Shown here: positions 8,018-31,542 of the stretch, piece after piece
Numbering within the stretch: position 1 is the stretch's first letter
Layout of the letters: the number at the start of each line of letters is the position of its first letter
From: Candidatus Multivoradales bacterium
Lineage (GTDB): Bacteria > Acidobacteriota > Thermoanaerobaculia > Multivoradales > J023
DNA: 64,000 nt
Direction: 5' to 3'
Assembly: GCA_965248925.1 (NCBI GenBank)
Contig: CBDFLE010000006.1
Span: forward strand, 1,952,001 to 2,016,000
Notes under the pieces: generated by a model
The model's database searches: none
What the model saw: the letters and a program-made list of their open reading frames with translations, nothing else
Told to the model about the DNA's origin: nothing
Position numbers and translations under genes: made by a program

Positions 8018-8036
8018 GGACGGCCTCCAGACGAGG

Positions 8037-8995: not shown

Positions 8996-9008
<13 letters not shown>
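8037..9008 (-). CDS. unbL: DUF1702 family enediyne-cluster protein (E3/UnbL), copy 1
   Basis: RGFAYEGAAM, HIYMVQVGAGWA, WLAYDGYGFHQGFF, DQGLGRSLWF, DLWAGVGLAASYAGG, LAQGAAFAA motifs; overlaps the pksE stop by 13 nt. Confidence 0.88.
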
Positions 9009-15010
<6,002 letters not shown>

Positions 15011-15357
15011 CAATCCTCCCGTTCTAGGTGTTAAAAGAACCCAGGCGGAGTCAAATTAGAGGAGTGACTATATACGAATACATCAATTAGCGTTGTTTTT
15101 CCCTACTCTTTTGCTGACCGAAAAAACCACGCTATTTCGCAAGATCGAAGAAGTCAAATAAGCCTCCCAAGAGATATGAGAACCCCCTGCTCCAGCCCAG
15201 CCGACAACAGAGTCGCAATCCAGTCAACCATGAAGTCGACAGGTTGTTCCCCTCTCGGCTCGGACACCGAGCGGGTTTCACCAACGCTTGCCGGATGAGC
15301 TAACAGCACGAGAGCACTTCCTCAAGAACAAAAGAAAAATCATTGCTGGCCGTCTAG

Positions 15358-16230
15358 TTAGGCGGAACTCTCCATCTCAAGTTCCAAACGCTGCGCCAGG
15401 CGTTCGTCGATCAGCAGCGGCAGAGCCATCAACAGTGGGGGATTGAGCAGCCGTGGAGGTTGCAGCACTAAGTGAGGTCTGGCGGTCAATTGGCCCGCTG
15501 CGTCGGGCTCGAAAGGGCCGGCACTGGCCAGCCCACGGATCGCCTCGCTGTGGCGCAGAAAATCGAGCGGCCCTTCAAAGCGGTCCATGCCGGCGGCAAA
15601 AACAAAGAATCGCTCACCCGGAGGAATCGCCAGCTTGAAGTCGCCGATGGCCGAAAGAATGGTGCAAGATCGGGGTCTCGACTGCGGAATCGGTGAGTCG
15701 AACAGGCCGATGAAGATAAATCCCGCCAACGGCTGCTCGGCTTCAATCGTACCTTCGAGCATGGCTACCGTGGTATTCGGCACCTCGGGCTCCACCAACA
15801 TTTGCACTTGTTCGGCATCGGTGGCGTACACCCGGCATAACTGGCGAAACTGGCCCGGCGCCAAACCCACCAGTTGAGTGAATCGGCTACTGAAGGTTCC
15901 CAGGCTGTTGTAGCCGACTTCGAAACAGATATCGAGCACACTCTGCTCGGTGGTCATCAACAACTTCTTTGCTGCTTCCAAACGCAAAGCACCGAGAAAC
16001 TGCATCGGTGGAATTCCGACTAGCTCACGAAAAATGCGATTGAAATAGTAGGGGCTCATGCAAGCCAGGTCAGCCATCTCGTCGAGAGTGACCTCTTCGG
16101 TCAGGTGCTGGTGCATGTGCTTGACGACCCGTTCGATAGCTTGCTGATGACTAGCGAGGGTTTCCTCGTGGGCCACCTGGTGGGAAGGCCACAGCGCCTC
16201 GGCGGTGGTAGCACTGCCAACATTCGGCAT
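15358..16230 (-). CDS. AraC-family transcriptional regulator (N-terminal HTH pair, C-terminal effector domain)
   Basis: TLDEMADLACMSPYYFNRIF...RLEAAKKLL...ICFEVGYNSLGTFSSRFTQLVG; GGAGG RBS; lies directly upstream of pksE copy 1. Confidence 0.9.
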   Translation of the reverse strand: MPNVGSATTAEALWPSHQVAHEETLASHQQAIERVVKHMHQHLTEEVTLDEMADLACMSPYYFNRIFRELVGIPPMQFLGALRLEAAKKLLMTTEQSVLDICFEVGYNSLGTFSSRFTQLVGLAPGQFRQLCRVYATDAEQVQMLVEPEVPNTTVAMLEGTIEAEQPLAGFIFIGLFDSPIPQSRPRSCTILSAIGDFKLAIPPGERFFVFAAGMDRFEGPLDFLRHSEAIRGLASAGPFEPDAAGQLTARPHLVLQPPRLLNPPLLMALPLLIDERLAQRLELEMESSA

Positions 16231-16560
16231 CAGAATCAACCTCCACGGTTAAGCAAACTGGTACCCAGAAAGAGCGAGCCAGAGTGCGAATAACAACTCG
16301 AACAGCGATTAATGCATCGATAGGTCTCTATGAGAGTACTGGAGAAATTCTGATTCTCAAAATAGAGATAAATTTCAAGCCTGATAGGTAAAGACTTGGC
16401 GCCCTGGCGCTTCGGCAAGTAATGCCGGGGCCTCTTGGCTTTGAGGAGATCGGGGCGGTGGCGAATTCCGCCCAGCTACGCCGGGGGGCGAGAGGACTAG
16501 GGGACGAAACCCCTCGCTAGATCATGACGTCCCCGGTGGGACGGAGAATCCCCACTCTGG

Positions 16561-19137
16561 TCAGCTGCCTTCGCTGTCGTAGAACGATAGGTCGGTATCG
16601 ACCGGCGCTTGCAGGCTGCGCTTCTCTTTGACAAAAGAAAGCAGCTCGTCGTCGCTGTCGATCTCTAGGTGACGTTCGAGTTCGTCGGCGCCAGGAAAGC
16701 GCCCCAGCCCTCGCCGCCAAGCACGGCGGGCCTCGTCGTAGCGGCCCGCCTTGGCATAGGCCTGGCCGAGAGCGACGTAGACTCGCTGCTGGTAGGGCGC
16801 CACCACTCCGCTCTGCTCTTGCAGTTCGGCACAGCGTTCCAGGTCGCGAGCAGCGTCGTCGGAATGACGCAGCGCCCGCGGCCAATGCAGATGGTTCATC
16901 CCCCGCGAGTAAAGCGCCAGCCAAGAATCCGGCTGGGCCGCCAGCACCTTGTCGGCCTCGTCCAGACCGCGCTTGGCCACGCTGCCCTTGCAGACGATCG
17001 CCGCCAGCCCGCCGCAGGCCGGGATCTTGTCGACGTAGGCCACCGACAGCTCGATCCGCCAAGCCGGGTTCTTGGTGGTGTCGGCGCGCTCGGTAAGAAA
17101 GGCGATCGCCCGGTCGTGAGCATCGTACTCGGCCGCCAGACGCCGGTAGTCGCTGGCTTCGCGAGCCTGGTAGACACCTCTCAGCAGGCTCTCAAGTTCT
17201 GCCAACTGACCCTCGATCTCAGCCGCCGAGGGCAGCGCCCGCTTGGCTACCTGGGTGCCCGGCAAGGGACTCAGGCGCCGCGGCTGGGAGATCTCCAGCT
17301 CCCGCCGCTCGGCATAGCTGCCGGGATCCTGGTGCAAAGTGAGTATTTGATCGACTGCCACGTCCTCGAAATACTGTAAACCGCCGTCTGGCCAGCGTAC
17401 TTCCAGCATCTCCACCAGATCCACCGTACCGAGACCAAAATGTAGTCTCGGCTCGCTCTGCCCCGCGAAACCGTTGCCTCCATCGCGCTCACGCACCAGC
17501 ACCCCGGCCGCGGTCGCCAGGGTCACCCGCGTGCCGATGCCGTCGCGATTGACCCCGCTCGACGGATCGGTCACCAGCGCCACCCGCAGCCAATGCGCCC
17601 CTGCCGCCGTCTGGCGGTGATCTAGCAAACCATTGCGAAACAGCTGCGGAGCGTCGCCCTGATTGGCGATGAACAGATCCAGGTCGCCATCGTTGTCATA
17701 GTCCACCACCGCGATGCCGCGGCCATCCCGGTCGCTGTCCAGGCCGGTCGGGCCGGCGTTTTCAGTGAAGGCTAGCAGCCCCTCGTTGCGCCACAGCCGA
17801 GTGCGTTCGTAGCCCGAGAACGAGCGGTCGCCGATCGCCGGCCAGTTGCGGGCGTCGTCGGAATGCTCGCCGGTCACCGTCCACGACGCCAGGTCGTACC
17901 AATAGCTGCCCTCGCCGGCACTGATGAAGCCGTTGACCGCCACGATGTCCAAATCGCCATCGTTGTCGTAGTCGAAGAACTTCGCCCCCCAACCCCAACC
18001 GCCATCGTAGGCCCGCGCCTCCAGGCCGACATCGGTGAAGTGGATCTCGCCCGACTCGTCCGGGCCCTCGTTGTACCAGAGCATGTTGCCCTCTTGCAGG
18101 TACTCGGCGGTGGTGATGTTGGAGACGTAGATATCTAGCCAGCCATCGTTGTTGAAGTCACCAAAGTCGACGTTCATGCCCTTCTTGGTGTCGTAGCCCA
18201 GAGCACTCTCGGTGGCGTTGCGCCAGCTGCCCTCGCCGTCTGAAAGGAAGAGCTGGTCGGGACCGAAATCGTCGGCGGCATAGAGATCGGGCCAGCCGTC
18301 GCCGTCCAAATCCGCCGCTCCCACCGCCAGAGTCCAGCCCGGGTCAGCGACCCCGTGCTTCTCGGCGACCTCGACAAAGCTGCCGTCCCCCTGCTGCTGG
18401 TAGAGGTAGTTGGCGCCGCCGTTGCGGGCGCGCTCGAAGTCTTCGTGCATGATCCGGGTCGACCCCAGATGCCACAGATCGACCTCGCGGAAGTAGTTGC
18501 CAACGTAGATATCCAAAAGACCATCGCGGTCGAAATCGAGAAAGATCGCCGCGTTGCCATTCGCCCACTCGGTGCCCGGCTGGCCATCGCGACGCTGGAA
18601 CACCTCGGCGGTGACCTCACGGAAGGTGCCGTCGCCCTGGTTGCGATATAGCGAGTCCGTGCCCCAACGCACCAGGTAAAGATCCACCAGACCATCGTTG
18701 TCGTAGTCCCCCCACACCGCGTCCATGCTGGTGCCGCGAGCATCGTTGGCTTGCGCCAAGCCGGCCTGCTCCCCCACCTCGGCGAAGCTGCCGTCGCCCT
18801 GGTTGCGATACAGCAGGTTGGGCTCCCCCTTGCGCGACTCGGTGACGAAGAAATCTTGCCAGCCGTCGCCATCGTAGTCGGCACTGGCCACCGCCGCGCC
18901 GACGCTCGCCATCCACGACATGATGTTCGACAACTGAGCGTCCAACACCGGCCGATGATGGCGGTGGGTAATCCCCGCGCTCAACGCCACGTCGACGAAG
19001 AGCGGTTCTTCCGCCTCTGGCAGCCCTGAATGGGCTTCCTCGGCGCAACCACCGAGCACGACGACCAGAGCGACGGCCAACAGCCCGACGAGCAACACAA
19101 GACTCGCGACGGCGAAATGGAGGGGGGCAGTCTTCAA
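16561..19137 (-). CDS. unbV: UnbV/E4-like lipoprotein with C-terminal TPR domain, copy 2
   Basis: Mature sequence identical to copy 1 in the ORF track but with a different signal peptide (lipobox LGGC) and a different last few residues. Start uncertain: TTG 19137 with a GGGAGA RBS, or GTG 19287. Confidence 0.85.
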   Translation of the reverse strand: MKTAPLHFAVASLVLLVGLLAVALVVVLGGCAEEAHSGLPEAEEPLFVDVALSAGITHRHHRPVLDAQLSNIMSWMASVGAAVASADYDGDGWQDFFVTESRKGEPNLLYRNQGDGSFAEVGEQAGLAQANDARGTSMDAVWGDYDNDGLVDLYLVRWGTDSLYRNQGDGTFREVTAEVFQRRDGQPGTEWANGNAAIFLDFDRDGLLDIYVGNYFREVDLWHLGSTRIMHEDFERARNGGANYLYQQQGDGSFVEVAEKHGVADPGWTLAVGAADLDGDGWPDLYAADDFGPDQLFLSDGEGSWRNATESALGYDTKKGMNVDFGDFNNDGWLDIYVSNITTAEYLQEGNMLWYNEGPDESGEIHFTDVGLEARAYDGGWGWGAKFFDYDNDGDLDIVAVNGFISAGEGSYWYDLASWTVTGEHSDDARNWPAIGDRSFSGYERTRLWRNEGLLAFTENAGPTGLDSDRDGRGIAVVDYDNDGDLDLFIANQGDAPQLFRNGLLDHRQTAAGAHWLRVALVTDPSSGVNRDGIGTRVTLATAAGVLVRERDGGNGFAGQSEPRLHFGLGTVDLVEMLEVRWPDGGLQYFEDVAVDQILTLHQDPGSYAERRELEISQPRRLSPLPGTQVAKRALPSAAEIEGQLAELESLLRGVYQAREASDYRRLAAEYDAHDRAIAFLTERADTTKNPAWRIELSVAYVDKIPACGGLAAIVCKGSVAKRGLDEADKVLAAQPDSWLALYSRGMNHLHWPRALRHSDDAARDLERCAELQEQSGVVAPYQQRVYVALGQAYAKAGRYDEARRAWRRGLGRFPGADELERHLEIDSDDELLSFVKEKRSLQAPVDTDLSFYDSEGS
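16578..19021. repeat. 2.44 kb near-identical direct repeat, copy 2 (partner 5428-7871)
   Basis: Direct comparison of the two sequences. Confidence 0.95.
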
Positions 19138-19408
19138 GGTCGGTCTCCCGATTGCACCGCCACTGTGGCCTGGCGGTAAGTAGTCGCTAGGGTAGCCGCG
19201 GCTGGGCCTCTGCGGGCCAAGCCGAGACCACCTACTGAGTTGCTCTACTTGAAAAGGGAGTGTCGCCAGACGATCTTTATCCACCACCTACCGGCAATTT
19301 CCCCCCATCGGCGACAAAAATCCAAGACAATGACTCCGACTAGAACAAGGACTCCCTCGATCCTGGGAATCCGATGTTCAAGAACCTAGCGCTTGGGAAC
19401 TCAATACC

Positions 19409-21793
19409 GTGAGTCACCGAACAGCGGACAGCTTCGCCAGACCTTTCCTGCGGCTCAGCGAGGCGGCGATTCGCCGGCCTCGATTGGCCCTCACTAGCGT
19501 GCTACTGGTGACCCTGCTGGCGCTACCCGGCCTGTGGCGGCTCGAGCTGCGCACCGATGGCCATGCGCTGGTGCCGTCGGCAGACCCGGTGGTGCTTTTC
19601 GACCGCCAAGTACGCCAGCACTTCAAGCTGCGCGATCCGTTGGTGGTGATGCTGAGCACCTCCCATCCGGACGGCATCTACAACGCCGCCACGATGCGCC
19701 GAGTGCGCAATTTGTCGCAGGCGCTGGCGGCGCTACCAGAGGTTGGCGAGGGGCGGGTCACCAGTCTCGCCACCGAGCGTCGCGATCGAGTCTACGAGGG
19801 TACCTTGAACTTCCGCCCCTACCTCGATCCACTGCCGGAGGACCGCCGGCTGCTCGACCAGCTGCGCGGCGACATCGCCGCCGTCGGCCTGCTTGAGGGC
19901 ACCTTGGTGTCAACCGACCAACACGCCACCGCCATCTTGGTGGGAGTGCCCACGACTACCTCCGACAATGCCCGCCGAGCGCTCGACCGAGTGGCGATCT
20001 TCCGCCAAGTGGAGCACACCGCCAAGGCTTTCGCAAGCCCGCTCGATCGCATCGAGGTGGTGGGGGCGCCGGCCGCCGAGGCCCTGCTCGGCCTGCACCT
20101 TTTGCAGGACCTTGTCCTGCTGGTACCCCTGTCCATGCTGTTGATCGCCACGGTGATGTGGTTGGGCTGCCGGCGACTCTGGGGAGTCGCGTTGGGAATG
20201 ATGGAGATCGGTGCCTGTCAGCTATTTACTTTCGGCCTCTTGGGTTGGTCGGGGGTGCCGGTCTACCTCACTTTGGCAGTCTTGCCGGTAATCTTGACCA
20301 CCATCGGTCTAGCTGACGAGATCCATCTGCTGTGGCACCAGCAAGGAGAACTGGCCAGCGAGCCGGCAGGGGTCAGTCGGCGGCAAACCGTGCGCGCAAC
20401 GATGACCGCCATGACCCGGCCGATCGTCCTTACCACTCTGACCACCAGTCTTGGCTTTGCCTCATTCCTGCTCTCGCCGATCGTCCCGGTGCGCTTCTTT
20501 GGCTTGTTCGCCGCCCTCGGCATCCTCTTCTGCATGCTGTGGTCCCTGGTCGCCGTCCCGGCGTTGATGGTGCTGTCACCGAAGCGCTGGCTGCTCCGCA
20601 AGCGAGCTCCGCGTCAGCCCTCACGGCACTCCTTGCTGACTCTCGGCAGCCGCCACCCACGCTGGGTTCTGGGGCTGCTGGCACTGCTCAGTTTGGGCTT
20701 GGGAGCAGGAGTTTTTCGCCTCCAGGTTCAAGACAGCTGGATCGATGGCTTCGCCCCCAAGAGTACGTTCCGGCAAGCGACAGACGAGGTCAACGAGCGC
20801 TTTTTCGGCACCCACCTGCTCCTCGCTCACCTGACTTTCAACACCCCCGAGGAGCAAATCCCGGCGGTCCTGGATCACCGCGGCCCGCTTCTCGACCCGG
20901 AGCTGCTAAACAAGATTGGCGGCTTCGAGACCTTCGCCCGGCAACGGCCCGAAGTCGGCGGCGTGATTGGGCCGCACAGCCGGCTGGCGGCGGCCAACGC
21001 GCTGCTCACCGGCCGCAAGGAAGAGAACCGCCGGATCCCCGACACGGTGTATTGGGTGTGGAAACTGCTGGGCCACTTCAAGACCGCTCAAGGCGAGCTG
21101 CGGCTGCGGCAGATGATCAACGCCGAACTCGACCAGGCGGTGGTGACGATCTTCCTCAAAGACGCCAACTACCGCCAGACCGAGACTCTGATGGAAGCGC
21201 TGCACAGCTACGCTGAGGAGCATCTGGAAGCCGGTCTCGTCCAACTGCGGCTAGCTGGTGACGTGGCGGTCAGCCAAGCAATGATCCCCGCCATCGTCAA
21301 GACTCAAGTGCTGTCTCTGCTGCTCGCTTTGGGCGGCGCGACCTTGCTGCTAGCGCTGATCTACCGCTCGCTGGCGGCGGCGCTGGCAGCGGTCGGCCCG
21401 GCCATGGTGGCGGTGTTGTGGACCTTTGGCGCCATGGGCTGGACCGGCATTCCCTTAGGCGTCGCCACCTCGATGTTCTGCGCCATCACCCTGGGTATTG
21501 GCGTCGACTATGGCATCCATTTCTTCGAGCGCTACCGACTGGCGGCCAGCCACGGCGCTGAGCAACCGGTGGCGGTCGCGCTGGCCGAAGCCGGCCCGGC
21601 GATCATCACCGACAGCCTGGCGATCGCCATAGGCTTCGGCCTACTCGGTTTTTCGCAAGTGCCGGCCAACGCCCGCTTGGGCCTGCTGGTGGCGCTGGCT
21701 CTAGGCGCCGCCTGCCTGCTGACTCTGCTCGGCCTAGCCGCACTGTTGGAAACTCGCGGCGAGCCGGCGGCAAAGAGCTTGGAATCTATCTGA
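19409..21793 (+). CDS. MMPL/RND-superfamily exporter
   Basis: Two repeats of 1 TM + large loop + 5 TM; conserved TIGLADEIHL and LGIGVDYGIHF helices. Confidence 0.88.
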   Translation: MSHRTADSFARPFLRLSEAAIRRPRLALTSVLLVTLLALPGLWRLELRTDGHALVPSADPVVLFDRQVRQHFKLRDPLVVMLSTSHPDGIYNAATMRRVRNLSQALAALPEVGEGRVTSLATERRDRVYEGTLNFRPYLDPLPEDRRLLDQLRGDIAAVGLLEGTLVSTDQHATAILVGVPTTTSDNARRALDRVAIFRQVEHTAKAFASPLDRIEVVGAPAAEALLGLHLLQDLVLLVPLSMLLIATVMWLGCRRLWGVALGMMEIGACQLFTFGLLGWSGVPVYLTLAVLPVILTTIGLADEIHLLWHQQGELASEPAGVSRRQTVRATMTAMTRPIVLTTLTTSLGFASFLLSPIVPVRFFGLFAALGILFCMLWSLVAVPALMVLSPKRWLLRKRAPRQPSRHSLLTLGSRHPRWVLGLLALLSLGLGAGVFRLQVQDSWIDGFAPKSTFRQATDEVNERFFGTHLLLAHLTFNTPEEQIPAVLDHRGPLLDPELLNKIGGFETFARQRPEVGGVIGPHSRLAAANALLTGRKEENRRIPDTVYWVWKLLGHFKTAQGELRLRQMINAELDQAVVTIFLKDANYRQTETLMEALHSYAEEHLEAGLVQLRLAGDVAVSQAMIPAIVKTQVLSLLLALGGATLLLALIYRSLAAALAAVGPAMVAVLWTFGAMGWTGIPLGVATSMFCAITLGIGVDYGIHFFERYRLAASHGAEQPVAVALAEAGPAIITDSLAIAIGFGLLGFSQVPANARLGLLVALALGAACLLTLLGLAALLETRGEPAAKSLESI

Positions 21794-22005
21794 GACGACC
21801 CCACCCAAAGCCTCCTCTTGAGGCTCTATCTTCCCTGCCGGGGGTCAAGGCGAGCCGCGGCTGACTCCGTTTAGAGCAGAGAAGGTAAGAGGTGTCCGGC
21901 CAACCGTTCTCGACTCGATCGAGAGTCCAGCGGAAGGCCCGTCGTCAAAGAGCTTTCGACCTTCGTCGAAACGCTCAAATCAATCCTCCCAGGAAGGAGA
22001 TCCTG

Positions 22006-22881
22006 ATGAAGAGAAGCTTCAAACTAGGTGTTCTGTGCCTTGTCGCAGCCACCCTCCTATTGATCGTCCCGGCCCAGGCACACGATGTCAACGCCGGCAT
22101 TGACTTGTGGAAGACGGTCGGCGCCAACAACGGTACCTACGTCGATTTCAGCTCGCAGAGCATCCCGCTGAACTTCTTCTGCGCCGGCTATGGCGGGTAC
22201 ACGGGAACGATCGCTCTCAAAGGTAAGGCGATTGCCGCCACCAAGAGCCTGCAGGGTGCCGACACCGTCATCGAGCGCACCACAGACGAAGACGTCAACG
22301 GCAACGCAAACATGATCGTTCGGGTGCTCTCGCTGCAAGGCAAGACGCAGTTCTCTGCCGGCGTGTGTGGCACTTCGCACACCGTCAAAGTAGGGCTCGA
22401 CCCGAGCCGCGTCCAGGACAACACCAACATCAACTTCGTCCATTCGGCCTCGACCGGCGGCGTTTTCAGCGCCACTATCTCGGTCAAGGGCGAAGTCGTG
22501 TTCACCGAGGTGGGCAGCGGTGTGGTACGTGCGATCTCCAACGACATCGTCATGCAGACCAGCAATGCTTGCTGGAATCACACCACCGGCAGCGGCGGCA
22601 TCACGGTCTCCGGCCCGGTGACCGTCGATACCACCTGTGACGGCATTCCCGACCTCACCTTGCCGGGCACTTCCAACTTCCACGCCGGTTGGTGCCCGCC
22701 GTCCGGTGGCAGTGGCCCGCCGACCGCGTCGACGATCAACCACACCGGTCCTCACCCGACCAAGCCACCGAAGAAGAAGTGCAGCATCCGGCCGGTCGAT
22801 GACTGGATTGGGATCGAGTTCGGCTTTGACGAGTTCGGCAAGGCGATCGCTATCGAGACCTGCCAGGTCTTGAACCAGTAG
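22006..22881 (+). CDS. Secreted Cys-rich, beta-rich hypothetical protein SP1
   Basis: AAGGAG RBS; Sec signal ending AQA; strong C-ending codon bias; clear paralogue of 23267-24190. Confidence 0.85.
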   Translation: MKRSFKLGVLCLVAATLLLIVPAQAHDVNAGIDLWKTVGANNGTYVDFSSQSIPLNFFCAGYGGYTGTIALKGKAIAATKSLQGADTVIERTTDEDVNGNANMIVRVLSLQGKTQFSAGVCGTSHTVKVGLDPSRVQDNTNINFVHSASTGGVFSATISVKGEVVFTEVGSGVVRAISNDIVMQTSNACWNHTTGSGGITVSGPVTVDTTCDGIPDLTLPGTSNFHAGWCPPSGGSGPPTASTINHTGPHPTKPPKKKCSIRPVDDWIGIEFGFDEFGKAIAIETCQVLNQ

Positions 22882-22884
22882 AAA

Positions 22885-22938
22885 TCCGACGGGGAGGCGG
22901 CATCTTGGTTTGCCGTCCACGAGCCGCCCCCCGCCGGA
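22885..22938 (+). terminator. Long GC-rich imperfect stem-loop immediately after SP1 (terminator or mRNA stabiliser)
   Basis: TCCGACGGGGAGGCGG pairs imperfectly with CCGCCCCCCGCCGGA; no U-tract. Confidence 0.4.
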
Positions 22939-23266
22939 GGTAGGCATCGTTCCCGGGTTCTAGGTTGGTCGAGCTGATCGCGTCATCGGTGACGGACACC
23001 TCGATAACCAAGCCCCCGACGGGGCAGCTGACGTGCAGCTCTCCCAGCCGAGGCCCGGGGCCGATGGTTCTTATCTTAGCAATGAGGCAGCAGCCGGAGA
23101 GACCTCTCGCTGGTGGGCTGCTCAAGAGCCAGATGGGGTGCAATCTAGCCACGGTGAGGTCATCTCTATCGCGCTCGTCACAGTGGGCGAGCAGGCGAAG
23201 GCTGATCTCCGGCGAGCGCCGTTGTTGGCGACTCGCAAACCGCGGCTCTAACGTTTGGAGGAAAAC

Positions 23267-24190
23267 ATGTTTAGAAGTCATTCCCAGTCAATTCTGTGCC
23301 TCTGTGCCGCTCTCGTCTTGCTAGCGGTGCCAGCCGCGGCATCCAACGTCAACTCCGGCATCGACCTGTGGGTCACCGTTGCCAACGGCACCAGTGTCAA
23401 CTTTTCGGGTCAGGCCATCCCCGCCGGATTTTTCTGCGCCGGCTCGAATTCGTTCAGCGGCTCGATCTCGCTCAAGGGCAAGAACATCGCCGCCAACATG
23501 GGTCTGCAGGGAGCTGACACGATCCTCGAGCGGCCAGTGACCGCGGTGCTGGGTTCGGTAGCTACGGTTCCACTGGTCCTCAGGGTTCTATCGTTGCAGG
23601 ACGTGACACCGCATTCGGTTCCCGAGTGTGGATCGAGCTACGACGTCTTCGTACGGCTCAACCAGTCGATCAGCCAGCCGCAGGGCAGCATTACGATCAG
23701 CCATTCGATGGCCACCGGCGGTACTTTCAACTCGGTGCTACCGGTAGAGACCGAGGTGATCTTCACCAACACCGTGAGCGGTGATGTCAAGACGATCACC
23801 AACAGCACCGTCCTGACCACCACGACCGCTTGCTGGAACCACACTCCGGGCCCCGGCGGCATTGTCGTCAACGGCCCGGTGACCGTCGACAGTGACGGCG
23901 ACGGCATCATCGACCTCACCCTGCCGGGGACCTCGAACTTCGCCCCGGGCTGGTGTGCACCGGCCGGCGGTACTGGTAACCCGACCTTCAGCCCGCCGAC
24001 CCATCAGGCGCCGACTCACGCCCACAAGGTGAAGGCGCCGAAGAAGAAGTGCAGCATCCGGCCGATCGAGATCGATCTCACCGAGTTCGGCGACGAGCAG
24101 GTTGGTGGCAAGGCCACCAGCACGCAGATTGGCGAGATCGGCTTTGTCAACCTCATCGCTTGTGATGCGGTGGTGCTCAGCCCCAGGTAG
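23267..24190 (+). CDS. Secreted Cys-rich, beta-rich hypothetical protein SP2
   Basis: GGAGG RBS; Sec signal ending AAA; shares GIDLWxTV, IPxxFFCAG, LQGADT, RVLSLQ, ACWNHT, DLTLPGTSNF, GWC and PKKKCSIRP with SP1. Confidence 0.85.
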   Translation: MFRSHSQSILCLCAALVLLAVPAAASNVNSGIDLWVTVANGTSVNFSGQAIPAGFFCAGSNSFSGSISLKGKNIAANMGLQGADTILERPVTAVLGSVATVPLVLRVLSLQDVTPHSVPECGSSYDVFVRLNQSISQPQGSITISHSMATGGTFNSVLPVETEVIFTNTVSGDVKTITNSTVLTTTTACWNHTPGPGGIVVNGPVTVDSDGDGIIDLTLPGTSNFAPGWCAPAGGTGNPTFSPPTHQAPTHAHKVKAPKKKCSIRPIEIDLTEFGDEQVGGKATSTQIGEIGFVNLIACDAVVLSPR

Positions 24191-24295
24191 CTGAACTCCG
24201 GCGGCATCGTCCTTGCTCGACAGCGACACGGGACGATGCCCCCCTCTTGGGTGTCAAAACAGCGCACAAGGACTACCAGCGATAGGTCCTCAAAG

Positions 24296-27200
24296 ATGAA
24301 TCACAGCAGCCCAGCCATCGCCATCGTCGGCCTCGCCTGCCACTATCCCGACGCTCGCAATCCTCGCCAGCTGTGGGAAAACGCGCTCAGCCAGCGCCGT
24401 GCATTCCGCGCCATCCCGCCACAGCGCCTCGATCTCGAGGACTATGGCCGTCTGGTCAGTGACCAGGCCGACGGCACTTATGTCGCCGAGGCAGCGCTGC
24501 TCGATGGTTTTGAATTCGATCGGGTGAAGTTCCGCGTCAGCGGCAGCACCTATCGCAGCACCGACCTGGCCCATTGGCTGGCCCTCGATATCGCCTCACG
24601 TGCGCTCGCCGACGCCGGCTTCGCCAACGGCGATCGACTACCCCGCGACCGCGTCGGCGTCCTGGTGGGCAACACTCTGACCGGCGAATTCTCCCGCGCC
24701 CAGCAAATGCGTCTGCGCTGGCCTTACGTTCGCCGGCAGGTCGCCGCCGAGCTCGCCGCCGAAGGCTGGGACGAGCAACGAAGCAGTGCCTTTCTCGGCC
24801 GCTTGGAGCAGAACTACAAGGCACCCTTCCCAGCACCCACCGAAGACACTTTGGCCGGCGGCCTGGCGAACACCATCGCCGGCCGCATCTGCAACCACTT
24901 CGATCTCCACGGCGGCGGCTACACCGTCGATGGCGCTTGTGCTTCGTCCCTGCTGGCCACCGCTCAAGCCTGCACGGCACTAGCCAACGGCGACCTGGAG
25001 ATGGCTTTGGCCGGCGGCGTCGACCTCAGCCTGGATCCCTTCGAGCTGGTCGGATTTGCCCGCAACGGCGCCCTTTCGCCCGGCGAAATGTTGGTGTTCG
25101 ATCAACGATCCCAGGGTTTCTTGCCCGGCGAGGGCTGCGGCTTCGCAGTGCTAATGCGTCATCGCGATGCGTTGCACCAAGGCTTGCGAGTTTACGCCGT
25201 GATCCGTGGTTGGGGGATCTCCTCCGATGGCAGCGGCGGCATCACCCGGCCAGAGGTCGATGGCCAGGTATTGGCTCTGCAACGGGCCTACCAGCGGGCC
25301 GGTTTCGGTATCGACACCGTCGACTTGATCGAGGGGCACGGCACCGGCACGGCGGTCGGCGACACCACCGAACTCACCGCCCTCAACCGCGCCCGGCGCA
25401 ACTCTACCCCCGGTGAGGCCACGCCGCACCACGCTGCTGTGGGTTCGATCAAGGCCAACATCGGCCACACCAAAGCCGCCGCCGGCCTGGCCAGCTTGAT
25501 CAAAGCCAGCCTGGCGCTCGACTCTCAAGTGCTGCCACCGACCACCGGCTGCAAGCTGCCCCACACCCAGATCACCGGCCCCGCCTCAACCTTACGGACC
25601 TTGCGCCAACCCGAGCCCTGGCCTCTTGGGCGGCCGTTGCGTTGCGGGGTGAGCGCGATGGGTTTTGGCGGCATCAACAGCCATCTGGTGTTGGAGAGTG
25701 CCGAGCCGCCTCGGCGAACTTCGGGCCGGCGCATCGACAGCCGCTTCGGCCCCACCCCCCAAGACTGCGAGATGCTGCTCTTCGCCGGCGCGGATAGCGC
25801 GGAACTGAAACAGAAAGTCGAGCGAGTGAAAGTACGGGTGACCAGCCTGACCCACGCCGAACTCGGCGATTTGGCGGCCGAACTCGCCCGCCGGCTGCCG
25901 GCCGACGCCAACTACCGGTGCGCGCTGATCGCCGCCACTCCCAAGCAGCTGCAAGAGCGCCTCGGCAAGCTACGCCAGGCCCTCGACCACCCCTTGGCCC
26001 GCGGTGCCTCGCATCTCGACCCTGAGCATGGCCTGTTCCTCGGTCATGGCGGCCGCCCACCACGGATCGGCCTGCTCTTCCCTGGTCAGGGCTCGCCCGC
26101 CAGGCTCGGTGGAGGTTTATGGCGCCAACGCTTTGCCAGCGCCGCCGAGGTCTATGCCGGCAGCGACTTGCCCAGCGCCGGGGATGGAGTGGACACCGCC
26201 ATCGCTCAGCCTGCCATCGCCACCGCGGCACTGGCCGGCCTGGAGGTTCTGGACAGCCTCGGCGTCCACGCCACCACCGCCATCGGCCATAGCCTCGGCG
26301 AGCTGATCGCCCTCCAGTGGGCCGGCGCCTATGACAGCGCCGCTCTGCTGCGCTTGACTCATGCCCGCGGCCAGGCGATGGCCGAACTCGGTGAGGCCAC
26401 CGGCGCGATGGCCAGCCTGGGCGCCTCGGCGGCTGATGTGGCGCGGCTGATCGACCGCCTTGGGGTCGACAACCTGACCCTGGCCGGCCTCAACTCGCCG
26501 CGTCAAACGGTCATTTCGGGACCGGCGGAGCAAGTTGTCAACGCCCTCGAGCAGGCTGCCAAACAAGGTTGGCAGACCACCCGCTTGGCGGTTTCGCACG
26601 CCTTTCACTCACCCCTGGTGGCGGCCGCCGTGCCGCGCCTGGAAGAAGCCCTGGCGGCTGAGACTTGGGAGACGCCACGGCGAAGGGTGATCTCGACCAT
26701 CACTGGCCAAGTGCTCGATCCGCAAGCTACCCTAGCGCCGCTACTCGCCGCGCAGGTGACCTCGCCAGTACGATTCGTCGAGGCCTTGCAGCTCGCCGCC
26801 GAACACTGTGACGTGTTCCTAGAGGTCGGCCCTGGCGAAGTCTTGACTGGGCTAGCCAGGGCCACCGTCACCCAGCCGATCCTTGCCCTCGATGTCGGCG
26901 GACCGTCACTAGCCGGCCTACTGCAAGCTAGCGGCGCGCTGTGGGCTCTAGGAGCATCGATCCGGCCGGCGGTTCTGTTTGCCGATCGCTACCACCGGCC
27001 GTTGGACCTGGACCACCAACCCGCCCTGCTGAGCAATCCGTGCGAAGAGGCACCGCGACTGGGCGAAGCGCTGGCCAGAGCCACCCGGCCGCCCAACCCC
27101 CCAGCCTCCGACGACCCTGACCTTGCTCCACCGAGCCTCGCCACAACAGTCGTCAGCAGCGCGACCTCGCCCCTCGAAGTGGTCCACCAGTTGGTCTGTC

Positions 27201-30178
27201 AACGCACCGAGCTACCGATCTCCGCGGTGGACGCGGACAGCCGCATGCTGAGCGACTTGCACCTCAGCTCGATCACCGTCGGGGCACTGGTTTCCGAGGC
27301 CGCGCGGCAGCTCGAGTTGCCGCCGCCAGCGGCTCCCAACGAATACGCCAACGCCACCCTCGGCACCATCGCTCAAGCCTTCGAAGAGCAGCTCAAGAGC
27401 GGCGGCGGCGGGGGCAATACCGATCGCGACACCTTGCCTGCCGGGGTCGACCAGTGGGTCCGGGCGTTCACTGTCGAGCTGCTCGCCCGAGACCTCGAAC
27501 AACGCCCCAGCGAGATGCTCCAGGGCGGGTGGCAAGTGTTTGGCAGCGATCGACATGCACTGCGCGCGACCTTGCCTGAAGTCCTGGCGCAAGCCGCGCC
27601 GGGCGGCGGCATCGTGCTGCTGCTAGCAGTAGGCGATACCGACCGACAGCTCGATTTGATCCTCGAAGCGGCCCGTACCGGGCTCGACCTCGAGCGCTTC
27701 CTGCTGGTCCACCACGGCCACTCGGCGGCCGCAATGGCCCGTACCCTGCATCTCGAATCGCCCTCAACCGCGGTCGGGGTAATCTGTCTACCGGCCTTGC
27801 TCGGCACCGGCGAAGAAGAAGGATGGTGCCACCGGATCGCCGCCGAAGCCAAGGGCCTGAAGGGCTATCGCGAAGCCACCTACGACCTCGATGGGCAACG
27901 CTGGGAACCGCGCCTGCGGACTCTCTCCGAACCGCCCGGGCAGCAGTCCCAAGCCCCGCCCCTCGAAGCCGACGAGGTATTGGTGGTCAGTGGCGGCGGC
28001 AAAGGCATCGGCGCCGAATGTGCCCTCGCCCTGGCCCAAAGTTGGGGCGTGCGCTTGGCGATCCTCGGTCGCTCCGAACCCCAGCAAGACAGCGAACTGG
28101 CGGAGAACCTGCAACGTTTTGCCGCCCAAGGGGTCACCGCGCGCTACTTCGTCGCTGATGTCGGCGATGCCACCGCCGTGGCTCATGCCATCAGCGCCGC
28201 CAGAGCCGAGCTGGGGGAGATTCGCGGCCTGGTGCACAGTGCGGGCGCTAACCGTCCCCAACTACTGGCCAACCTGGGGCGAGCCGATGTCGAGGGTACC
28301 CTGGCGCCCAAAGTGGCCGGCCTCGACAACCTGCTGGCGGCGATCGACTGTGAATCACTCAAGTTGTTGGTCGGCTTCGGCTCGATCATTGCCCGCTCGG
28401 GAATGCCGGGAGAAGCCCACTACGCGCTGGCCAACGAACGCCTGCGGCGGCGACTCGAGGGCTTCGCTGAACTCTTCCCGGAATGCCGCAGCCTATGTGT
28501 TGAATGGTCGGTGTGGTCGGGAGTGGGCATGGGCGAGCGGCTGAGCCAGCTCGAAGCTCTGGCGCGCCAGGGCATCACACCGATTCCCCTCGCCGACGGG
28601 GTCGCCGCGCTGCTGCAGCTGCTCGAACGGCCGACGCCGGTGGCGGTGCTGGTGAGCAGCCGCTTCGGCGAACCGCCAACCCTCGAGATCGAACGACCAG
28701 AGATGCCGCTGCTGCGTTTCCTGGAACGCCGCCGGGTGCATGTCCCGGACGTCGAACTAGTGGTCGATTGTGCAATATCAGAAGACACCGACCCCTACCT
28801 GGCCGACCACATTTTCGACGGCGAGCGCCTGTTCCCAGCGGTGATGGGCTTAGAAGCCATGACTCAGGCTTGGACCGCGCTCACCGGCGGCAGCGGCCCA
28901 CCGCAGATCCGCGACATCCGCTTCGCTCACCCGATCACCGTTGCCAAGGGCAGCACCGCGCAACTGCGATTGGCGGCTTTGACCCGACCCGACGGTGCCA
29001 CCGAAGTAGTGCTGCGCAGCGCAGCGACCGGCTTTGCGGTCGATCACTTCCGCGCCATCTTCGAGCCCGTCGCGGACCCTGCTACCCAGGACGGGGCCGA
29101 CGACGACGTCAATGACCTCTGCGCCGTCGCCATGGCTGAAAGCCAGCTGCTACCCCTCGAACCCCAACGCGACCTCTACGGACCGGTGCTATTTCAACAA
29201 GGGATGTTCCAGCGTCTGCGCGGCTACCGCTGGCTACGTGCTCGCGCTTGCCTAGCCGAGGTCGAAGGCGACCCGCGGGCCCAGTGGTTCTCTACCTACC
29301 TACCGAGCGAGCTGCTGCTGGGCGACCCCGGCGCTCGCGACGCCACCATTCACGCTATCCAAGCCTGCATTCCCCACGCCACCGTACTGCCGGTAGCGCT
29401 CGCCAAGTTGGAACTCGGTGAAGCGCGGCTCGGCGAACGCCGGGTGTTCGGCGCCTGGGAGCGCCAGCGCAACGGAAAAACCCTGATCTACGATTTAGAG
29501 GTGCGCTACGCTGACGGCCGCTTGGCTGAAAGATGGAGGGGGTTGGAACTGCGGGTGGTCGATCAGGCTACTCAAGCTCCGCCCTTGGCAGAGCCGCTCC
29601 TAGGACCCTACTTGGAACGCCGCCTGGGCGATTTGCTGCCCGAGGCAGAGCTTTCAGTGGTGATAAATCGCGACCAGACACCGCAGGCAGAGCGCCGCCA
29701 ACGGAGCGATCAAGCGATCAAGCGCTTGGTCGGGGTGCGGCAGCAGATCTTCCGCCGTCCCGATGGCAAGCCCGAGCTGCCCAGCGGCCATCAGGTATCG
29801 ATTGCCCATGCGGGCGATCTGCTGATGGCGGTCAGCAGCTGTGGCCCGATCGGCTGCGATGTCGAAGCGGTGGCGGAGCGCTCCGAAGAACTGTGGAGTG
29901 ATCTGCTCGGAAAAGGAAGACTCCAACTCTTGCAACTGATGATGCGCAAGTACAGCGAAGATCGCGACCGCGCCGCGACCCGGCTGTGGACGGTGCTCGA
30001 GAGCCTCAAGAAAGCCGGCCGAGCGCCCGACGCGCCGTTGACCCTCGTCGACTCCAGCGAAGACGGCTGGCTGACTTTCGCTTCCGGCCGCCACTGGGCC
30101 GCCAGCGTGGTCATGCCGGCCACAGACGGCGGCCCGGCTACCGCCTTCGCCGTGTTGTCTGAGAGGCCAGAGTGTTGA
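24296..30178 (+). CDS. pksE: Enediyne-type iterative type I polyketide synthase PKSE (KS-AT-ACP-KR-DH-PPTase), copy 2
   Basis: KS DGACASS; AT GHSLG/AFHS; ACP DLHLSSI; KR GGGKGIG and GEAHYALAN; DH YLADHIFDGERLFP; PPTase GCDVE...WTVLESLKKAG. ORF is open from 24236. Confidence 0.92.
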   Translation: MNHSSPAIAIVGLACHYPDARNPRQLWENALSQRRAFRAIPPQRLDLEDYGRLVSDQADGTYVAEAALLDGFEFDRVKFRVSGSTYRSTDLAHWLALDIASRALADAGFANGDRLPRDRVGVLVGNTLTGEFSRAQQMRLRWPYVRRQVAAELAAEGWDEQRSSAFLGRLEQNYKAPFPAPTEDTLAGGLANTIAGRICNHFDLHGGGYTVDGACASSLLATAQACTALANGDLEMALAGGVDLSLDPFELVGFARNGALSPGEMLVFDQRSQGFLPGEGCGFAVLMRHRDALHQGLRVYAVIRGWGISSDGSGGITRPEVDGQVLALQRAYQRAGFGIDTVDLIEGHGTGTAVGDTTELTALNRARRNSTPGEATPHHAAVGSIKANIGHTKAAAGLASLIKASLALDSQVLPPTTGCKLPHTQITGPASTLRTLRQPEPWPLGRPLRCGVSAMGFGGINSHLVLESAEPPRRTSGRRIDSRFGPTPQDCEMLLFAGADSAELKQKVERVKVRVTSLTHAELGDLAAELARRLPADANYRCALIAATPKQLQERLGKLRQALDHPLARGASHLDPEHGLFLGHGGRPPRIGLLFPGQGSPARLGGGLWRQRFASAAEVYAGSDLPSAGDGVDTAIAQPAIATAALAGLEVLDSLGVHATTAIGHSLGELIALQWAGAYDSAALLRLTHARGQAMAELGEATGAMASLGASAADVARLIDRLGVDNLTLAGLNSPRQTVISGPAEQVVNALEQAAKQGWQTTRLAVSHAFHSPLVAAAVPRLEEALAAETWETPRRRVISTITGQVLDPQATLAPLLAAQVTSPVRFVEALQLAAEHCDVFLEVGPGEVLTGLARATVTQPILALDVGGPSLAGLLQASGALWALGASIRPAVLFADRYHRPLDLDHQPALLSNPCEEAPRLGEALARATRPPNPPASDDPDLAPPSLATTVVSSATSPLEVVHQLVCQRTELPISAVDADSRMLSDLHLSSITVGALVSEAARQLELPPPAAPNEYANATLGTIAQAFEEQLKSGGGGGNTDRDTLPAGVDQWVRAFTVELLARDLEQRPSEMLQGGWQVFGSDRHALRATLPEVLAQAAPGGGIVLLLAVGDTDRQLDLILEAARTGLDLERFLLVHHGHSAAAMARTLHLESPSTAVGVICLPALLGTGEEEGWCHRIAAEAKGLKGYREATYDLDGQRWEPRLRTLSEPPGQQSQAPPLEADEVLVVSGGGKGIGAECALALAQSWGVRLAILGRSEPQQDSELAENLQRFAAQGVTARYFVADVGDATAVAHAISAARAELGEIRGLVHSAGANRPQLLANLGRADVEGTLAPKVAGLDNLLAAIDCESLKLLVGFGSIIARSGMPGEAHYALANERLRRRLEGFAELFPECRSLCVEWSVWSGVGMGERLSQLEALARQGITPIPLADGVAALLQLLERPTPVAVLVSSRFGEPPTLEIERPEMPLLRFLERRRVHVPDVELVVDCAISEDTDPYLADHIFDGERLFPAVMGLEAMTQAWTALTGGSGPPQIRDIRFAHPITVAKGSTAQLRLAALTRPDGATEVVLRSAATGFAVDHFRAIFEPVADPATQDGADDDVNDLCAVAMAESQLLPLEPQRDLYGPVLFQQGMFQRLRGYRWLRARACLAEVEGDPRAQWFSTYLPSELLLGDPGARDATIHAIQACIPHATVLPVALAKLELGEARLGERRVFGAWERQRNGKTLIYDLEVRYADGRLAERWRGLELRVVDQATQAPPLAEPLLGPYLERRLGDLLPEAELSVVINRDQTPQAERRQRSDQAIKRLVGVRQQIFRRPDGKPELPSGHQVSIAHAGDLLMAVSSCGPIGCDVEAVAERSEELWSDLLGKGRLQLLQLMMRKYSEDRDRAATRLWTVLESLKKAGRAPDAPLTLVDSSEDGWLTFASGRHWAASVVMPATDGGPATAFAVLSERPEC

Positions 30179-30236: not shown

Positions 30237-31196
30237 ATGAGCCGACTGACCCGCCGGCTACTCGGCCTCTCAGAACGCGAGGTGAACTTCGAACATCGCG
30301 GTTTCCGCGGCGGTACCCCTGCCATCCGCGAACACATCGAGACCATCGGCCGCAGCTTTCTCCAGGGCTATCACGCGGCCCTACTCGACCCACGACTCGA
30401 CCGACTAGTGCCCAGGTTGGAAGCTGCGCCCGAGAACCACCGCGGATTCGTCTTCGAGGGCGCGGCCTTGGCCTTGGCCATACTCGATACCCTGGTACCC
30501 GGCCGCCGCAATCGTCTCGGCCGGCTGCTCGCCGACCGCGGCGCCAACCACGTCTACATGGCCCACGTCGGCGCTGGCTGGGCTCTGGCCCGCCTACCCT
30601 TTGGCGGCGCGAGCTTGCTAGCCCGCCTCGACCCCACCCTGCGCTGGCTGGCCTACGACGGTTGGGGTTTTCACCAGGGCTTCTTTGTCTGGCACAAGGC
30701 TGTCGAAGGTCGGCAACAAATACCGCGCCGGGTCGCTAGCGGCTATGCCCGACGGGCTTTCGACCAGGGTCTCGGCCGCAGCTTGTGGTTCCTCGAAGGT
30801 ACCGAAGTAGCACGTATCCCACGGACCATCGCCAGCTTTGCCGACCACCGCCAGAACGATCTTTGGAGCGGTATCGGATTGGCCGCGGCCTACGCTGGCG
30901 GCGTCGACCGGGCGGCACTAGAAACCCTGCGCGCCGCCGCCCGCGGCTGCACCGCCGAGCTAGCCCAGGGAGCCGCCTTCGGCGCCGAAGCCCGCCAGCT
31001 CGCCGGCAATCTCGGCCCACACACTGAACTCGCCTGCCAGGTGCTGTGTGGGCGAGACGCCGCGACCGTGGTCGAAATTACCCGCCAAACCGGTTGCGAC
31101 CTACCGCCGGGATCCGAGGAGTTGCCCGACTACGAAATCTGGCGTCAGCGCCTGCGCCACGCCTTCTCAGACGAGGCCCGCAGCGCGGTGGCCTGA
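30237..31196 (+). CDS. unbL: DUF1702 family enediyne-cluster protein (E3/UnbL), copy 2
   Basis: Same motifs as copy 1 (HVYMAHVGAGWA, WLAYDGWGFHQGFF, DQGLGRSLWF); AGGAG RBS. Confidence 0.88.
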   Translation: MSRLTRRLLGLSEREVNFEHRGFRGGTPAIREHIETIGRSFLQGYHAALLDPRLDRLVPRLEAAPENHRGFVFEGAALALAILDTLVPGRRNRLGRLLADRGANHVYMAHVGAGWALARLPFGGASLLARLDPTLRWLAYDGWGFHQGFFVWHKAVEGRQQIPRRVASGYARRAFDQGLGRSLWFLEGTEVARIPRTIASFADHRQNDLWSGIGLAAAYAGGVDRAALETLRAAARGCTAELAQGAAFGAEARQLAGNLGPHTELACQVLCGRDAATVVEITRQTGCDLPPGSEELPDYEIWRQRLRHAFSDEARSAVA

Positions 31197-31542
31197 GCTT
31201 GCACCGCAGAAGCTTACCGACCGGACAAGCCCAAGCGAACAGCTGTCAAGATTCACCATGTCATAGTGGCAATATGACAGCCTCTGCTGACTGATCTTGC
31301 CCAGCGCTTAAAGTCCTGCCTCTAACACCCCCGAACTTTGCAACCGAGCCGAGAGTTCTGGTAGCGACCTGCGTGTCCAGAACCTGCTGTCGGTACCCGA
31401 ATCCAGAGCATTGAGCGTTTCGGTTGAAATTCAGTGGCAGAAAAACTCCTGCATTCCCGTGGATAGACAAGGAACGGCGACGAGCCCGCAGGGCCGATCT
31501 TGCGCGTTCCTCACTTCTATCTCAACTTCAGGAGAAGCACCC

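Follow-up and report, generated by a model that had tools for sequence, protein, structure and literature searches.

Two paralogous genes, here called A and B, lie side by side in a 64,000-nucleotide stretch of the genome of Candidatus Multivoradales bacterium (contig CBDFLE010000006.1, positions 1,952,001 to 2,016,000; the whole stretch is called the window, the genome G000 and the contig C6). They are flanked by a gene for an MMPL-type exporter and a gene for an iterative polyketide synthase of the enediyne type (PKSE). Their products are probably exported, disulfide-stabilised, Ca2+-binding proteins, judging from their sequences, and belong to a large, well-defined domain family that has no Pfam or NCBIfam model. 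We tentatively favour, at somewhat less than even chances, the reading that A and B carry the hydrophobic PKSE product outside the cytoplasm once the MMPL pump has exported it. It is preferred because a barrel family with a predicted hydrophobic interior is co-inherited with the PKSE cassette and is found repeatedly inside it, beside a lipid-type RND (resistance-nodulation-division) pump. The support comes from the position of the genes, the predicted fold and its hydrophobic interior, recurrent linkage, a phylogenetic tree, genome-level co-occurrence, and an extended locus that holds a third copy of the family.

Sequence features of A and B

Proteins A and B are identical at 147 of 283 residues (52%, BLASTP E 1e-81). 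Both begin with a Sec-type signal, whose basic n-region and hydrophobic core lead up to an AxA site (MKRSFKLGVLCLVAATLLLIVPAQA followed by HD in A, MFRSHSQSILCLCAALVLLAVPAAA followed by SN in B); these signal peptides are a reading of the sequence by eye and not the output of a predictor. In the AlphaFold2 (AF2) model of A, helix 5-19 falls within the signal peptide. Strong ribosome-binding sites (AGGAAGGAG and GGAGG, respectively) lie 5-7 nt ahead of the ATG codons, while the longest open reading frame (ORF) of gene B would begin at a TTG at 23255. The GC content at third codon positions (GC3) is 0.815 in A and 0.80 in B, as against 0.54 in the 385-nt gap between them.

Six cysteines are aligned between the paralogues (59/121/189/230/259/286 in A and 57/121/189/230/262/299 in B), and A has a seventh, Cys211, within the loop VDTTCDGIPD. 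This loop and its counterpart in B, VDSDGDGIID, are of the DxDxDG type, which we take to be a Ca2+ loop. His-containing stretches follow (HTGPH at 246-250 in A, HQAPTHAH at 246-253 in B), and the proteins end in ...VLNQ and ...LSPR, respectively. A copper-binding 'histidine brace' was considered for mature A, which starts with His, and was dropped because B and most relatives lack a starting His.

The Sec signals, ribosome-binding sites, codon bias, paralogy with six aligned cysteines, Ca-loop-like and His stretches, and the placement between the MMPL and second PKSE genes on one strand had all been named in a preliminary description of the locus made from the nucleotide sequence, and every one of them was found again here. 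Its author had recognised no family, and neither A nor B matches any Pfam or NCBIfam family at E ≤ 0.01; likewise, no relevant Pfam family was found for 18 family members at E ≤ 10.

Predicted fold

The AF2 model of A built from 122 sequences (predicted local distance difference test score, pLDDT, 89.8; predicted template modelling score, pTM, 0.83) is an all-beta, eight-stranded barrel, as is a first model built from 18 sequences (pLDDT 79.6). In both models the barrel is followed by a loop-rich segment, placed confidently to about residue 260, and then by a low-confidence tail. The preliminary description had proposed structure prediction and a Foldseek search, naming DynF-like barrels and lipocalins as possible look-alikes. 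Among 350,542 chains Foldseek placed DynF (6ubl) at rank 2 (E 0.24) and then rank 1 (E 0.12) with the two models, and nothing reached E ≤ 0.001 with either.

Exhaustive structural alignment against 48,161 PDB chains ranked its best matches alike with the two models. DynF (6ubl_B) scored Z 8.6 and 9.3 with the two models (root-mean-square deviation 2.9-3.5, 139/211 residues aligned, 14% identity), values near the background of the tool (best Z of 7-8 for models without a true relative), so that they show the fold class and not homology. The other top matches were NspA (Z 9.2 and 9.3), OmpA (8.5 and 9.1), PagL (8.1 and 8.2) and OprF (8.1). DynF is the sole soluble natural protein in the top nine, which also include a de novo designed transmembrane barrel. 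Thus DynF stood as a joint-best structural look-alike, though at a background-level score. Lower down come avidins and de novo barrels, as well as YceI proteins and small Diels-Alderases (each at Z about 5). The fold matches listed contain no apoprotein chain, an absence that does not exclude one.

Conservation within the eight strands separates the two faces of the barrel, assigned by plain alternation of residues and not from coordinates. In the 122-sequence alignment conservation is higher on the hydrophobic side, where charged residues make up 9% and the mean entropy is 1.88 bits, than on the variable polar side (26% charged, 2.39 bits). Lipid-facing strands of outer-membrane barrels have a hydrophobic, uncharged outer face, and such barrels end in an aromatic C-terminal signal. 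The family differs from the OmpA/OmpX/NspA type in its charged variable face, in the non-aromatic C-termini of A and B and in the occurrence of the domain inside long multi-domain proteins. Together, the conserved hydrophobic face, the presence of cysteines, the internal repetition of the domain in longer proteins and the C-termini argue against an outer-membrane barrel and for a water-soluble core, an up-and-down beta-barrel of eight strands whose hydrophobic inner face is conserved.

A large domain family without a model

A word-indexed search gave 18 relatives, and an exhaustive profile search covering 1.84 billion cluster representatives gave 2747 at E ≤ 0.001, of which 1745 reach E ≤ 1e-10 and 364 reach E ≤ 1e-30. 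Among the best 150 representatives, 110 have at most 400 residues, 38 more than 500 and 20 more than 1000. In 18 long representatives Pfam recognised TSP3-type repeats (8), DUF7901 (3), subtilase (2), FG-GAP_2 with DUF7507 and DUF11 (1), a galactose-binding-like domain associated with the type IX secretion system (T9SS; 1), and DUF4215 with Dicty_CTDC (1), and nothing in 5.

Across 122 single-domain sequences (mean column identity 14%) Pro54, Asp86 and Arg91 are invariant, and Gly31, Asp33, Thr87, Cys121, Gln137, Gly152, Trp190 and His250 are nearly so. The conserved motifs are GxDLW, PxxFFC, DTxxxR, CG, GGxF, DxDxDG, GTSNF and HxxxH..C. Cys59 (104/122) and Cys121 (120/122) are conserved together, while Cys189 (17/122) and Cys230 (16/122) are rare. 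The loop follows the pattern D208-x-(D/N)210-x-D212-G213-x-x-D216 (Asp208 in 111, Asp212 in 99, Gly213 in 85 and Asp216 in 86 of the 122 sequences), Phe225 is kept in 113/122, and in the tail His246, His250 and Cys259 are kept in 95, 114 and 93, respectively. According to a simple heuristic, 118/122 members have a signal-like N-terminus.

Close relatives belong to Acidobacteriota, as seen from source names and from a protein atlas; two are labelled 'Thermoanaerobaculia bacterium'. The nearest clusters in the atlas are unnamed acidobacterial proteins (scores 0.89-0.91). DUF6073 and DUF6004 appear there at 0.76-0.80 only and are leads, no more: PF19550 has no match in G000, and neither name is mentioned in the open-access literature searched. 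Protein A has no confirmed relative in the genome or metagenome contig collections, nor does a second family alignment in the metagenome contig collection. Among the closest orthologues (P0002-P0004 and P0006), P0002 and P0006 both list a 3507-nt longest contig, a hint that the tandem pair may be conserved. The open-access papers and preprints searched (enediyne, PKSE, UnbV or UnbL with Acidobacteria or Thermoanaerobaculia) yielded no description of these proteins.

Genome-level co-occurrence with DUF1702

Co-occurrence across genomes was assessed with DUF1702 as a marker of the PKSE cassette; all counts omit G000. Forty relatives of G000 fall into nine genomes with both the family and DUF1702, three with the family only, three with DUF1702 only and 25 with neither (Fisher p = 1.3e-4, indicative only). 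The corresponding numbers in a phylum-wide sample are 4, 4, 4 and 388 (p = 4.5e-6, likewise indicative). In a class-wide sample of 201 genomes all six further family-bearing genomes carry DUF1702, and two carry DUF1702 alone; with G000 included, DUF1702 is present in 7/7 family-bearing genomes of the class sample. The samples overlap, and in the large ones only the top 5-11 candidates per genome were scored.

The three family-only relatives have weak partial matches only (E 1e-14 to 1e-21), and in all four family-only genomes of the phylum sample the match lies inside an open frame of 419-1770 residues. Pairing is also seen within genera: g5, g9, g10 and g16 each include one genome with a strong family match (best E ≤ 1e-68), which also has DUF1702, while most congeners have neither. 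The exceptions are G004 (g5) and G016 (g10), with weak partial family matches (E about 1e-14) and no DUF1702, and G018 (g10), with DUF1702 and no family member. Co-occurrence at the genome level is stronger than adjacency, and in this respect the check on shared genomes put forward in the preliminary description came out in favour of an association.

Linkage to PKSE cassettes

Nineteen DUF1702 loci were examined (the window, 12 and 6 others), each with up to about 20 kb on either side; the DUF1702 loci of G018, G396, G363 and G077 lie outside this set. A family member is present within the fetched stretch at five of them, in two distant acidobacterial families. One of the five is the window itself. 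At G010:C242 two family genes occur together with the same set of MMPL, AraC, UnbV, DUF1702 and PKSE genes, and a YceI-domain gene adjoins one of them. The three others belong to the family f46, which shares only its phylum with G000: the family member is divergent from DUF1702 in G342:C10, lies on the DUF1702 strand and overlaps the start of DUF1702 in G342:C214, and ends a co-directional array containing a cytochrome P450 gene in G073:C58. These f46 proteins keep the barrel motifs, while the loop and tail are missing. Elsewhere, G482, G490, G506 and G545 have no family match at E ≤ 1e-20 on the DUF1702-bearing contig.

In a maximum-likelihood tree of 46 domains, a single clade of eight rows gathers five of the seven that are PKSE-linked, among them A and B (ultrafast bootstrap 96, although the Shimodaira-Hasegawa-like approximate likelihood ratio test, SH-aLRT, gives only 62). 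The PKSE-linked label requires five changes on this tree, a number as low as in 17 of 500 shuffles.

Two cases deserve further mention. The PKSE-adjacent protein of G342:C214 (L071:9970-10749) ends in VPEPTTLLLLGSGLTGIAGFCRKRLSRKT, a PEP-CTERM-like sorting signal that would imply exosortase-dependent surface display in that genome. In G000 itself, at C6:1323184-1325933 (L010:11984-14733), two tandem family genes and fragments stand after an AMP-binding enzyme of the acyl-activating type and a histidine phosphatase and before DegV, of a fatty-acid-binding family; this is a second lipid-flavoured context of the family in G000.

Possible functions

If A and B are carriers, the PKSE and a hot-dog thioesterase would make a conjugated polyene in the cytoplasm and the MMPL/RND pump would move it across the inner membrane. 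The barrels would then take it up and shield it, either in the periplasm or outside the cell, before it is passed to lipoprotein FG-GAP/UnbV propellers or released. Such proteins would recall DynF, whose barrel encloses a fatty chain, and the enediyne apoproteins with their bound chromophore. Ligand binding, the identity of the ligand, its hand-over by the pump and the reason for two paralogues are what we infer from the context.

A number of observations weigh against this assignment. The preliminary description, which proposed beta-barrel or beta-sandwich carriers for a reactive chromophore, expected homologues to be linked to PKSE loci and named a mostly unlinked family as a finding that would speak against it; most homologues are indeed unlinked. 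In the 40 relatives only two of 77 family matches, spread over 12 genomes, are near a DUF1702 gene, both at G010:C242. G000 has 13 matches, corresponding to about 11 genes or fragments, and eight of these copies stand elsewhere, beside transposases, RHS, the AMP-binding enzyme and DegV, and glycosyltransferases. Conversely, 14/19 DUF1702 loci have no family member, and four of the eight further family-bearing genomes in the phylum sample lack DUF1702. The Fisher p-values exaggerate the association, because they come from related genomes. The score of DynF ties with those of outer-membrane barrels and is near background, and the 18- and 122-sequence profiles gave 0 matches at E ≤ 10 against all PDB sequences (hmmsearch), DynF included. 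Finally, the 38 representatives longer than 500 residues carry 2-6 copies of the domain, and this giant multi-copy architecture suggests a general surface module. Of the earlier proposal, then, the predicted barrel, the presence of some relatives inside cassettes and the co-occurrence with DUF1702 stand, and general linkage does not; its suggestion of covalent acyl acceptors found no support.

A general extracellular binding or adhesion module, directed at carbohydrate, protein or surfaces, multiplied in tandem and incorporated into giant adhesin-like proteins, for which proximity to the PKSE would be incidental and which would have no part in handling the polyketide, is accordingly the alternative to be weighed first, although we consider it rather unlikely. 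The long representatives with their TSP3, subtilase, FG-GAP_2 with DUF11 and T9SS-associated partners fit it, as do arrays away from any PKSE (seven tandem copies in G036:C53, four in G037:C1), the PEP-CTERM-like anchor of one relative and the heterogeneous contexts in G000. Such a module leaves unexplained why family members adjoin the cassette in two distant families (5/19 loci), why DUF1702 accompanies them in 6/6 genomes of the class sample and 9/12 relatives, and why strong family matches pair with DUF1702 within genera.

The invariant Pro54, Asp86 and Arg91, together with the nearly invariant Asp33, Thr87, Gln137, Trp190 and His250, might instead belong to an enzyme of the periplasm, or to a scaffold of the dirigent type, that would not just carry the exported polyene but cyclise, couple or oxidise it. 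The Diels-Alderases AbnU and Cyc15 and a dirigent protein are among the weaker fold matches, and the conserved HxxxH...C tail could bind metal. However, the Z scores concerned are weak (4.1-5.1), neither a catalytic motif nor a cofactor site could be recognised, and large tandem arrays and repeats in giant proteins are unusual for a pathway enzyme; an enzymatic role therefore appears improbable.

A poor prospect is that A and B protect the cell from a reactive enediyne chromophore, or serve it as true apoproteins, in functional analogy to neocarzinostatin or CalC and possibly with one such protein per PKSE. Secreted, Cys-rich beta proteins encoded within a PKSE locus would be expected of it, and the divergence of A from B (52% identity) resembles that of the PKSEs (53%) and of the DUF1702 genes (58%). 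The ratio of one per PKSE, suggested in the preliminary description, holds in G000 and in G342, where one barrel accompanies each of two cassettes, and fails in G010, where two barrels accompany one PKSE. The locus and its surroundings showed neither an UnbU-type gene nor tailoring genes for a finished enediyne, A and B do not resemble the Pfam apoprotein family, and enediynes are reported from Actinobacteria and ascidian extracts only (PMC10308959).

Very unlikely are small outer-membrane beta-barrels of the NspA/OmpA/OmpX kind that pass the product through the outer membrane: NspA, OmpA, PagL and OprF are among the best fold matches (Z 8-9.3) with the same strand number and topology as the model of A, whereas the distribution of charge and conservation over the two faces is the reverse of the lipid-facing expectation, the domain is repeated in long soluble-type proteins, and A and B have 6-7 cysteines, a non-barrel tail of about 100 residues, no aromatic C-terminus and no match to a Pfam family of outer-membrane proteins.

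Comparison with known systems

The carrier assignment finds its nearest parallel in DynF (PDB ID: 6UBL) from the dynemicin cluster of Micromonospora chersina. DynF is a dimeric barrel crystallised with palmitate inside, it is proposed to bind the PKSE polyene, and its orthologue Sgd15 is essential (PMC8725005). The predicted eight-stranded barrel of A recalls DynF, at a structural score near background, and A and B, like DynF, are encoded in an enediyne-type cluster, with relatives in four other cassettes. DynF, 22.6 kDa and dimeric, carried a His tag at its N-terminus, was made in E. coli and was purified from the lysate (PMC8725005). Unlike DynF, A and B have signal peptides, 6-7 cysteines, a DxDxDG loop and a His/Cys tail, and their family has many copies, some of them repeated within giant proteins. 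Nor is there any detectable sequence similarity between them and DynF.

Neocarzinostatin-type apoproteins are seven-stranded, Ig-like sandwiches of about 110 residues that bind and stabilise the product of their pathway. They resemble A and B as secreted, disulfide-bonded beta proteins encoded with a PKSE; mature A and B, however, have about 265-280 residues, and the model of A consists of an eight-stranded barrel of about 165 residues and a tail of about 100. The idea of an apoprotein of the neocarzinostatin type is not supported: A and B do not match the apoprotein family in Pfam (Neocarzinostat).

YceI-like and other calycin-type proteins, exported and soluble, use a barrel of eight strands to bind the hydrophobic chains of lipids or polyisoprenoids; A and B may do something similar. 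The structural scores are only 4.2-5.4 (1y0g, 1wub and 2x34), far under those of DynF and the outer-membrane barrels, and PF04264 is not matched.

In the BstA/B/C sterol and HpnN hopanoid systems, RND/MMPL lipid exporters work with periplasmic partner proteins. The window shows a comparable arrangement, in which the gene for an HAE-type RND pump neighbours those for small exported proteins, the putative recipients of a lipid, although the partner proteins of those systems bear no sequence relation to A and B.

The locus and its neighbourhood

The window contains two enediyne-type cassettes (Table 1), each with adjacent PKSE, DUF1702 and UnbV-type genes, which belong to the minimal enediyne PKSE cassette. 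The DUF1702 genes are of the UnbL type (E3), and the UnbV-type genes correspond to E4. Both UnbV-type proteins have lipobox-like N-termini. The genes for the MMPL protein, A, B and PKSE 2 are co-stranded, with gaps of 212, 385 and 45 nt. A promoter and terminator scan of positions 21700-24400 found no sigma-70-like site; the four terminator-like sites found are all on the minus strand, none being on the plus strand. The MMPL protein matches the HAE3 model TIGR00921 of NCBIfam (2.4e-51), under the cut-off of that model, and weakly the BstA and HpnN models, far under their curated cut-offs.

Table 1. Features of genes A and B and of the surrounding cassettes (window positions)
Feature	Positions	Strand	Basis and remarks
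FG-GAP/UnbV_ASPIC/TPR protein 1	5366..8074	-	Pfam; 96.7% identical to copy 2
DUF1702 cassette gene 1	8037..9008	-	PF08012 1.1e-111
PKSE-type iterative polyketide synthase 1	8996..15013	-	Pfam; 53% identical to PKSE 2
AraC-type regulator	15358..16239	-	Pfam; kept beside cassette in relatives
FG-GAP/UnbV_ASPIC/TPR protein 2	16561..19287	-	Pfam; lipobox-like N-terminus (VVLGGC)
MMPL/HAE3-type RND exporter, directly upstream of A	19409..21793	+	Pfam MMPL 1e-25, Patched, Sterol-sensing
Gene A, exported Cys-rich beta-barrel protein (predicted), 291 residues	22006..22881 (stop included)	+	ORF
A, signal peptide, residues 1-25	22006..22080	+	AQA/HD; read from sequence
A, barrel core, residues ~28-193	22087..22584	+	DSSP strands and fold matches; GIDLW, FFC, ADTVIER, CG, GGVF, ACWNHT
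A, DxDxDG-type loop VDTTCDGIPD, then LPGTSNF	22624..22680	+	coordinates from sequence
A, His/Cys tail HTGPHPTKPPKKKC	22741..22782	+	conserved His246, His250, Cys259
Gene B, paralogue of A, 307 residues	23267..24190 (stop included)	+	ORF
B, signal peptide, residues 1-25	23267..23341	+	AAA/SN; read from sequence
B, DxDxDG-type loop VDSDGDGIID, then LPGTSNF	23885..23941	+	coordinates from sequence
PKSE-type iterative polyketide synthase 2 (ketosynthase, acyltransferase, ketoreductase, dehydratase; KS-AT-KR-DH)	24236..30178	+	Pfam
DUF1702 cassette gene 2	30237..31196	+	PF08012 4.3e-105

The minimal cassette is described as the PKSE, a thioesterase and three conserved genes of unassigned function (PMC9992847). 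None of the 39 window ORFs scanned encodes a thioesterase (E10) or an UnbU-like protein (E5). The gene for a hot-dog thioesterase lies at C6:1941204-1941632, 10.4 kb ahead of the window, and its product shares 59-72% identity with thioesterases beside the PKSE in relatives; a 4HBT_2 thioesterase adjoins the PKSE at nine of the relatives' loci. Past this gene and one for a 1120-residue FG-GAP/TPR protein is the third copy of the barrel family; together the three genes span C6:1941204-1946121, about 6-10.8 kb before the window. A 1-nt shift of frame within a run of C divides this third copy (..PIPP/GFFCPG..), which may be a pseudogene or may reflect an error in sequencing the homopolymer. The neighbourhood showed no UnbU-type gene, the sole UnbU-like match being weak (29-30% identity) and on another contig. 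In f46 and in G377 a membrane protein of about 300 residues with weak NQR2_RnfD_RnfE matches is encoded between the UnbV-type gene and the PKSE, and is probably the UnbU-type gene product.

Several neighbours recur in relatives. MMPL orthologues stand beside the cassette in G037, G025, G008 and G010 (E 1e-161 to 1e-254), with a much weaker match in G039 (2.1e-65). The AraC regulator adjoins the cassette in G010, G020, G342 and G073, and P450 genes are present at two of the relatives' cassette loci (G073 and G020).

Other features of the window concern the cassettes and their flanks. The identity of the two UnbV-type proteins (97% over a 300-nt repeat at the DNA level) is far above that of the PKSEs and DUF1702 genes, suggesting that only the UnbV gene has lately been duplicated or undergone gene conversion. 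Past DUF1702 gene 2 a 285-residue ORF (31411-32268, plus strand) with a signal-like segment and no Pfam match contains HELGHFHGLTH, an HExxHxxGxxH motif like that of metzincin zinc proteases. Two neighbouring FG-GAP ORFs (32365-33897, plus strand) form one frame with an in-frame TAG at 33184-33186, which replaces the Trp of the repeat motif GVWV.LSTGS.F (..GFAHSGV*VSLSTGSGF..) and may be a nonsense mutation or a sequencing error. Similarly, an NtrC-type sigma-54 activator (3963-5315, plus strand) is cut into two ORFs by an in-frame TGA near 4686 in its ATPase domain (..GLFELASR*TLMLDEV..); Pfam places the start of Sigma54_activat in one ORF and the remainder with HTH_8 in the other. A 1132-residue putative regulator with AAA_16, MarR-like and BTAD-like TPR segments (33986-37384, minus strand) lies at the flank of the locus; in G005, G002 and G342, too, cassettes are bordered by TPR or TPR-kinase genes related to it.

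Implications

Enediyne-type polyketide synthase genes are widespread beyond actinomycetes, and no product from those lineages is reported (PMC10308959). The fate of the PKSE polyene once released is an open question even in well-studied pathways (PMC8725005 and PMC9992847). Exported barrels that are co-inherited with the cassette, and sometimes found inside it next to a lipid exporter, offer a handle on both the product and the fate of the polyene.

It is also conceivable, though unlikely, that the family is the acidobacterial counterpart of the enediyne apoproteins and stabilises a reactive, PKSE-derived polyene or polyyne outside the cell. If so, it would be the first chromoprotein-like delivery system outside Actinobacteria and a distant structural relative of DynF, which would make the barrel an ancient partner of PKSE products. 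More generally, should the barrels prove to bind the product, they could serve as bait for the metabolite, and they would suggest that part of the chemistry takes place outside the cytoplasm.

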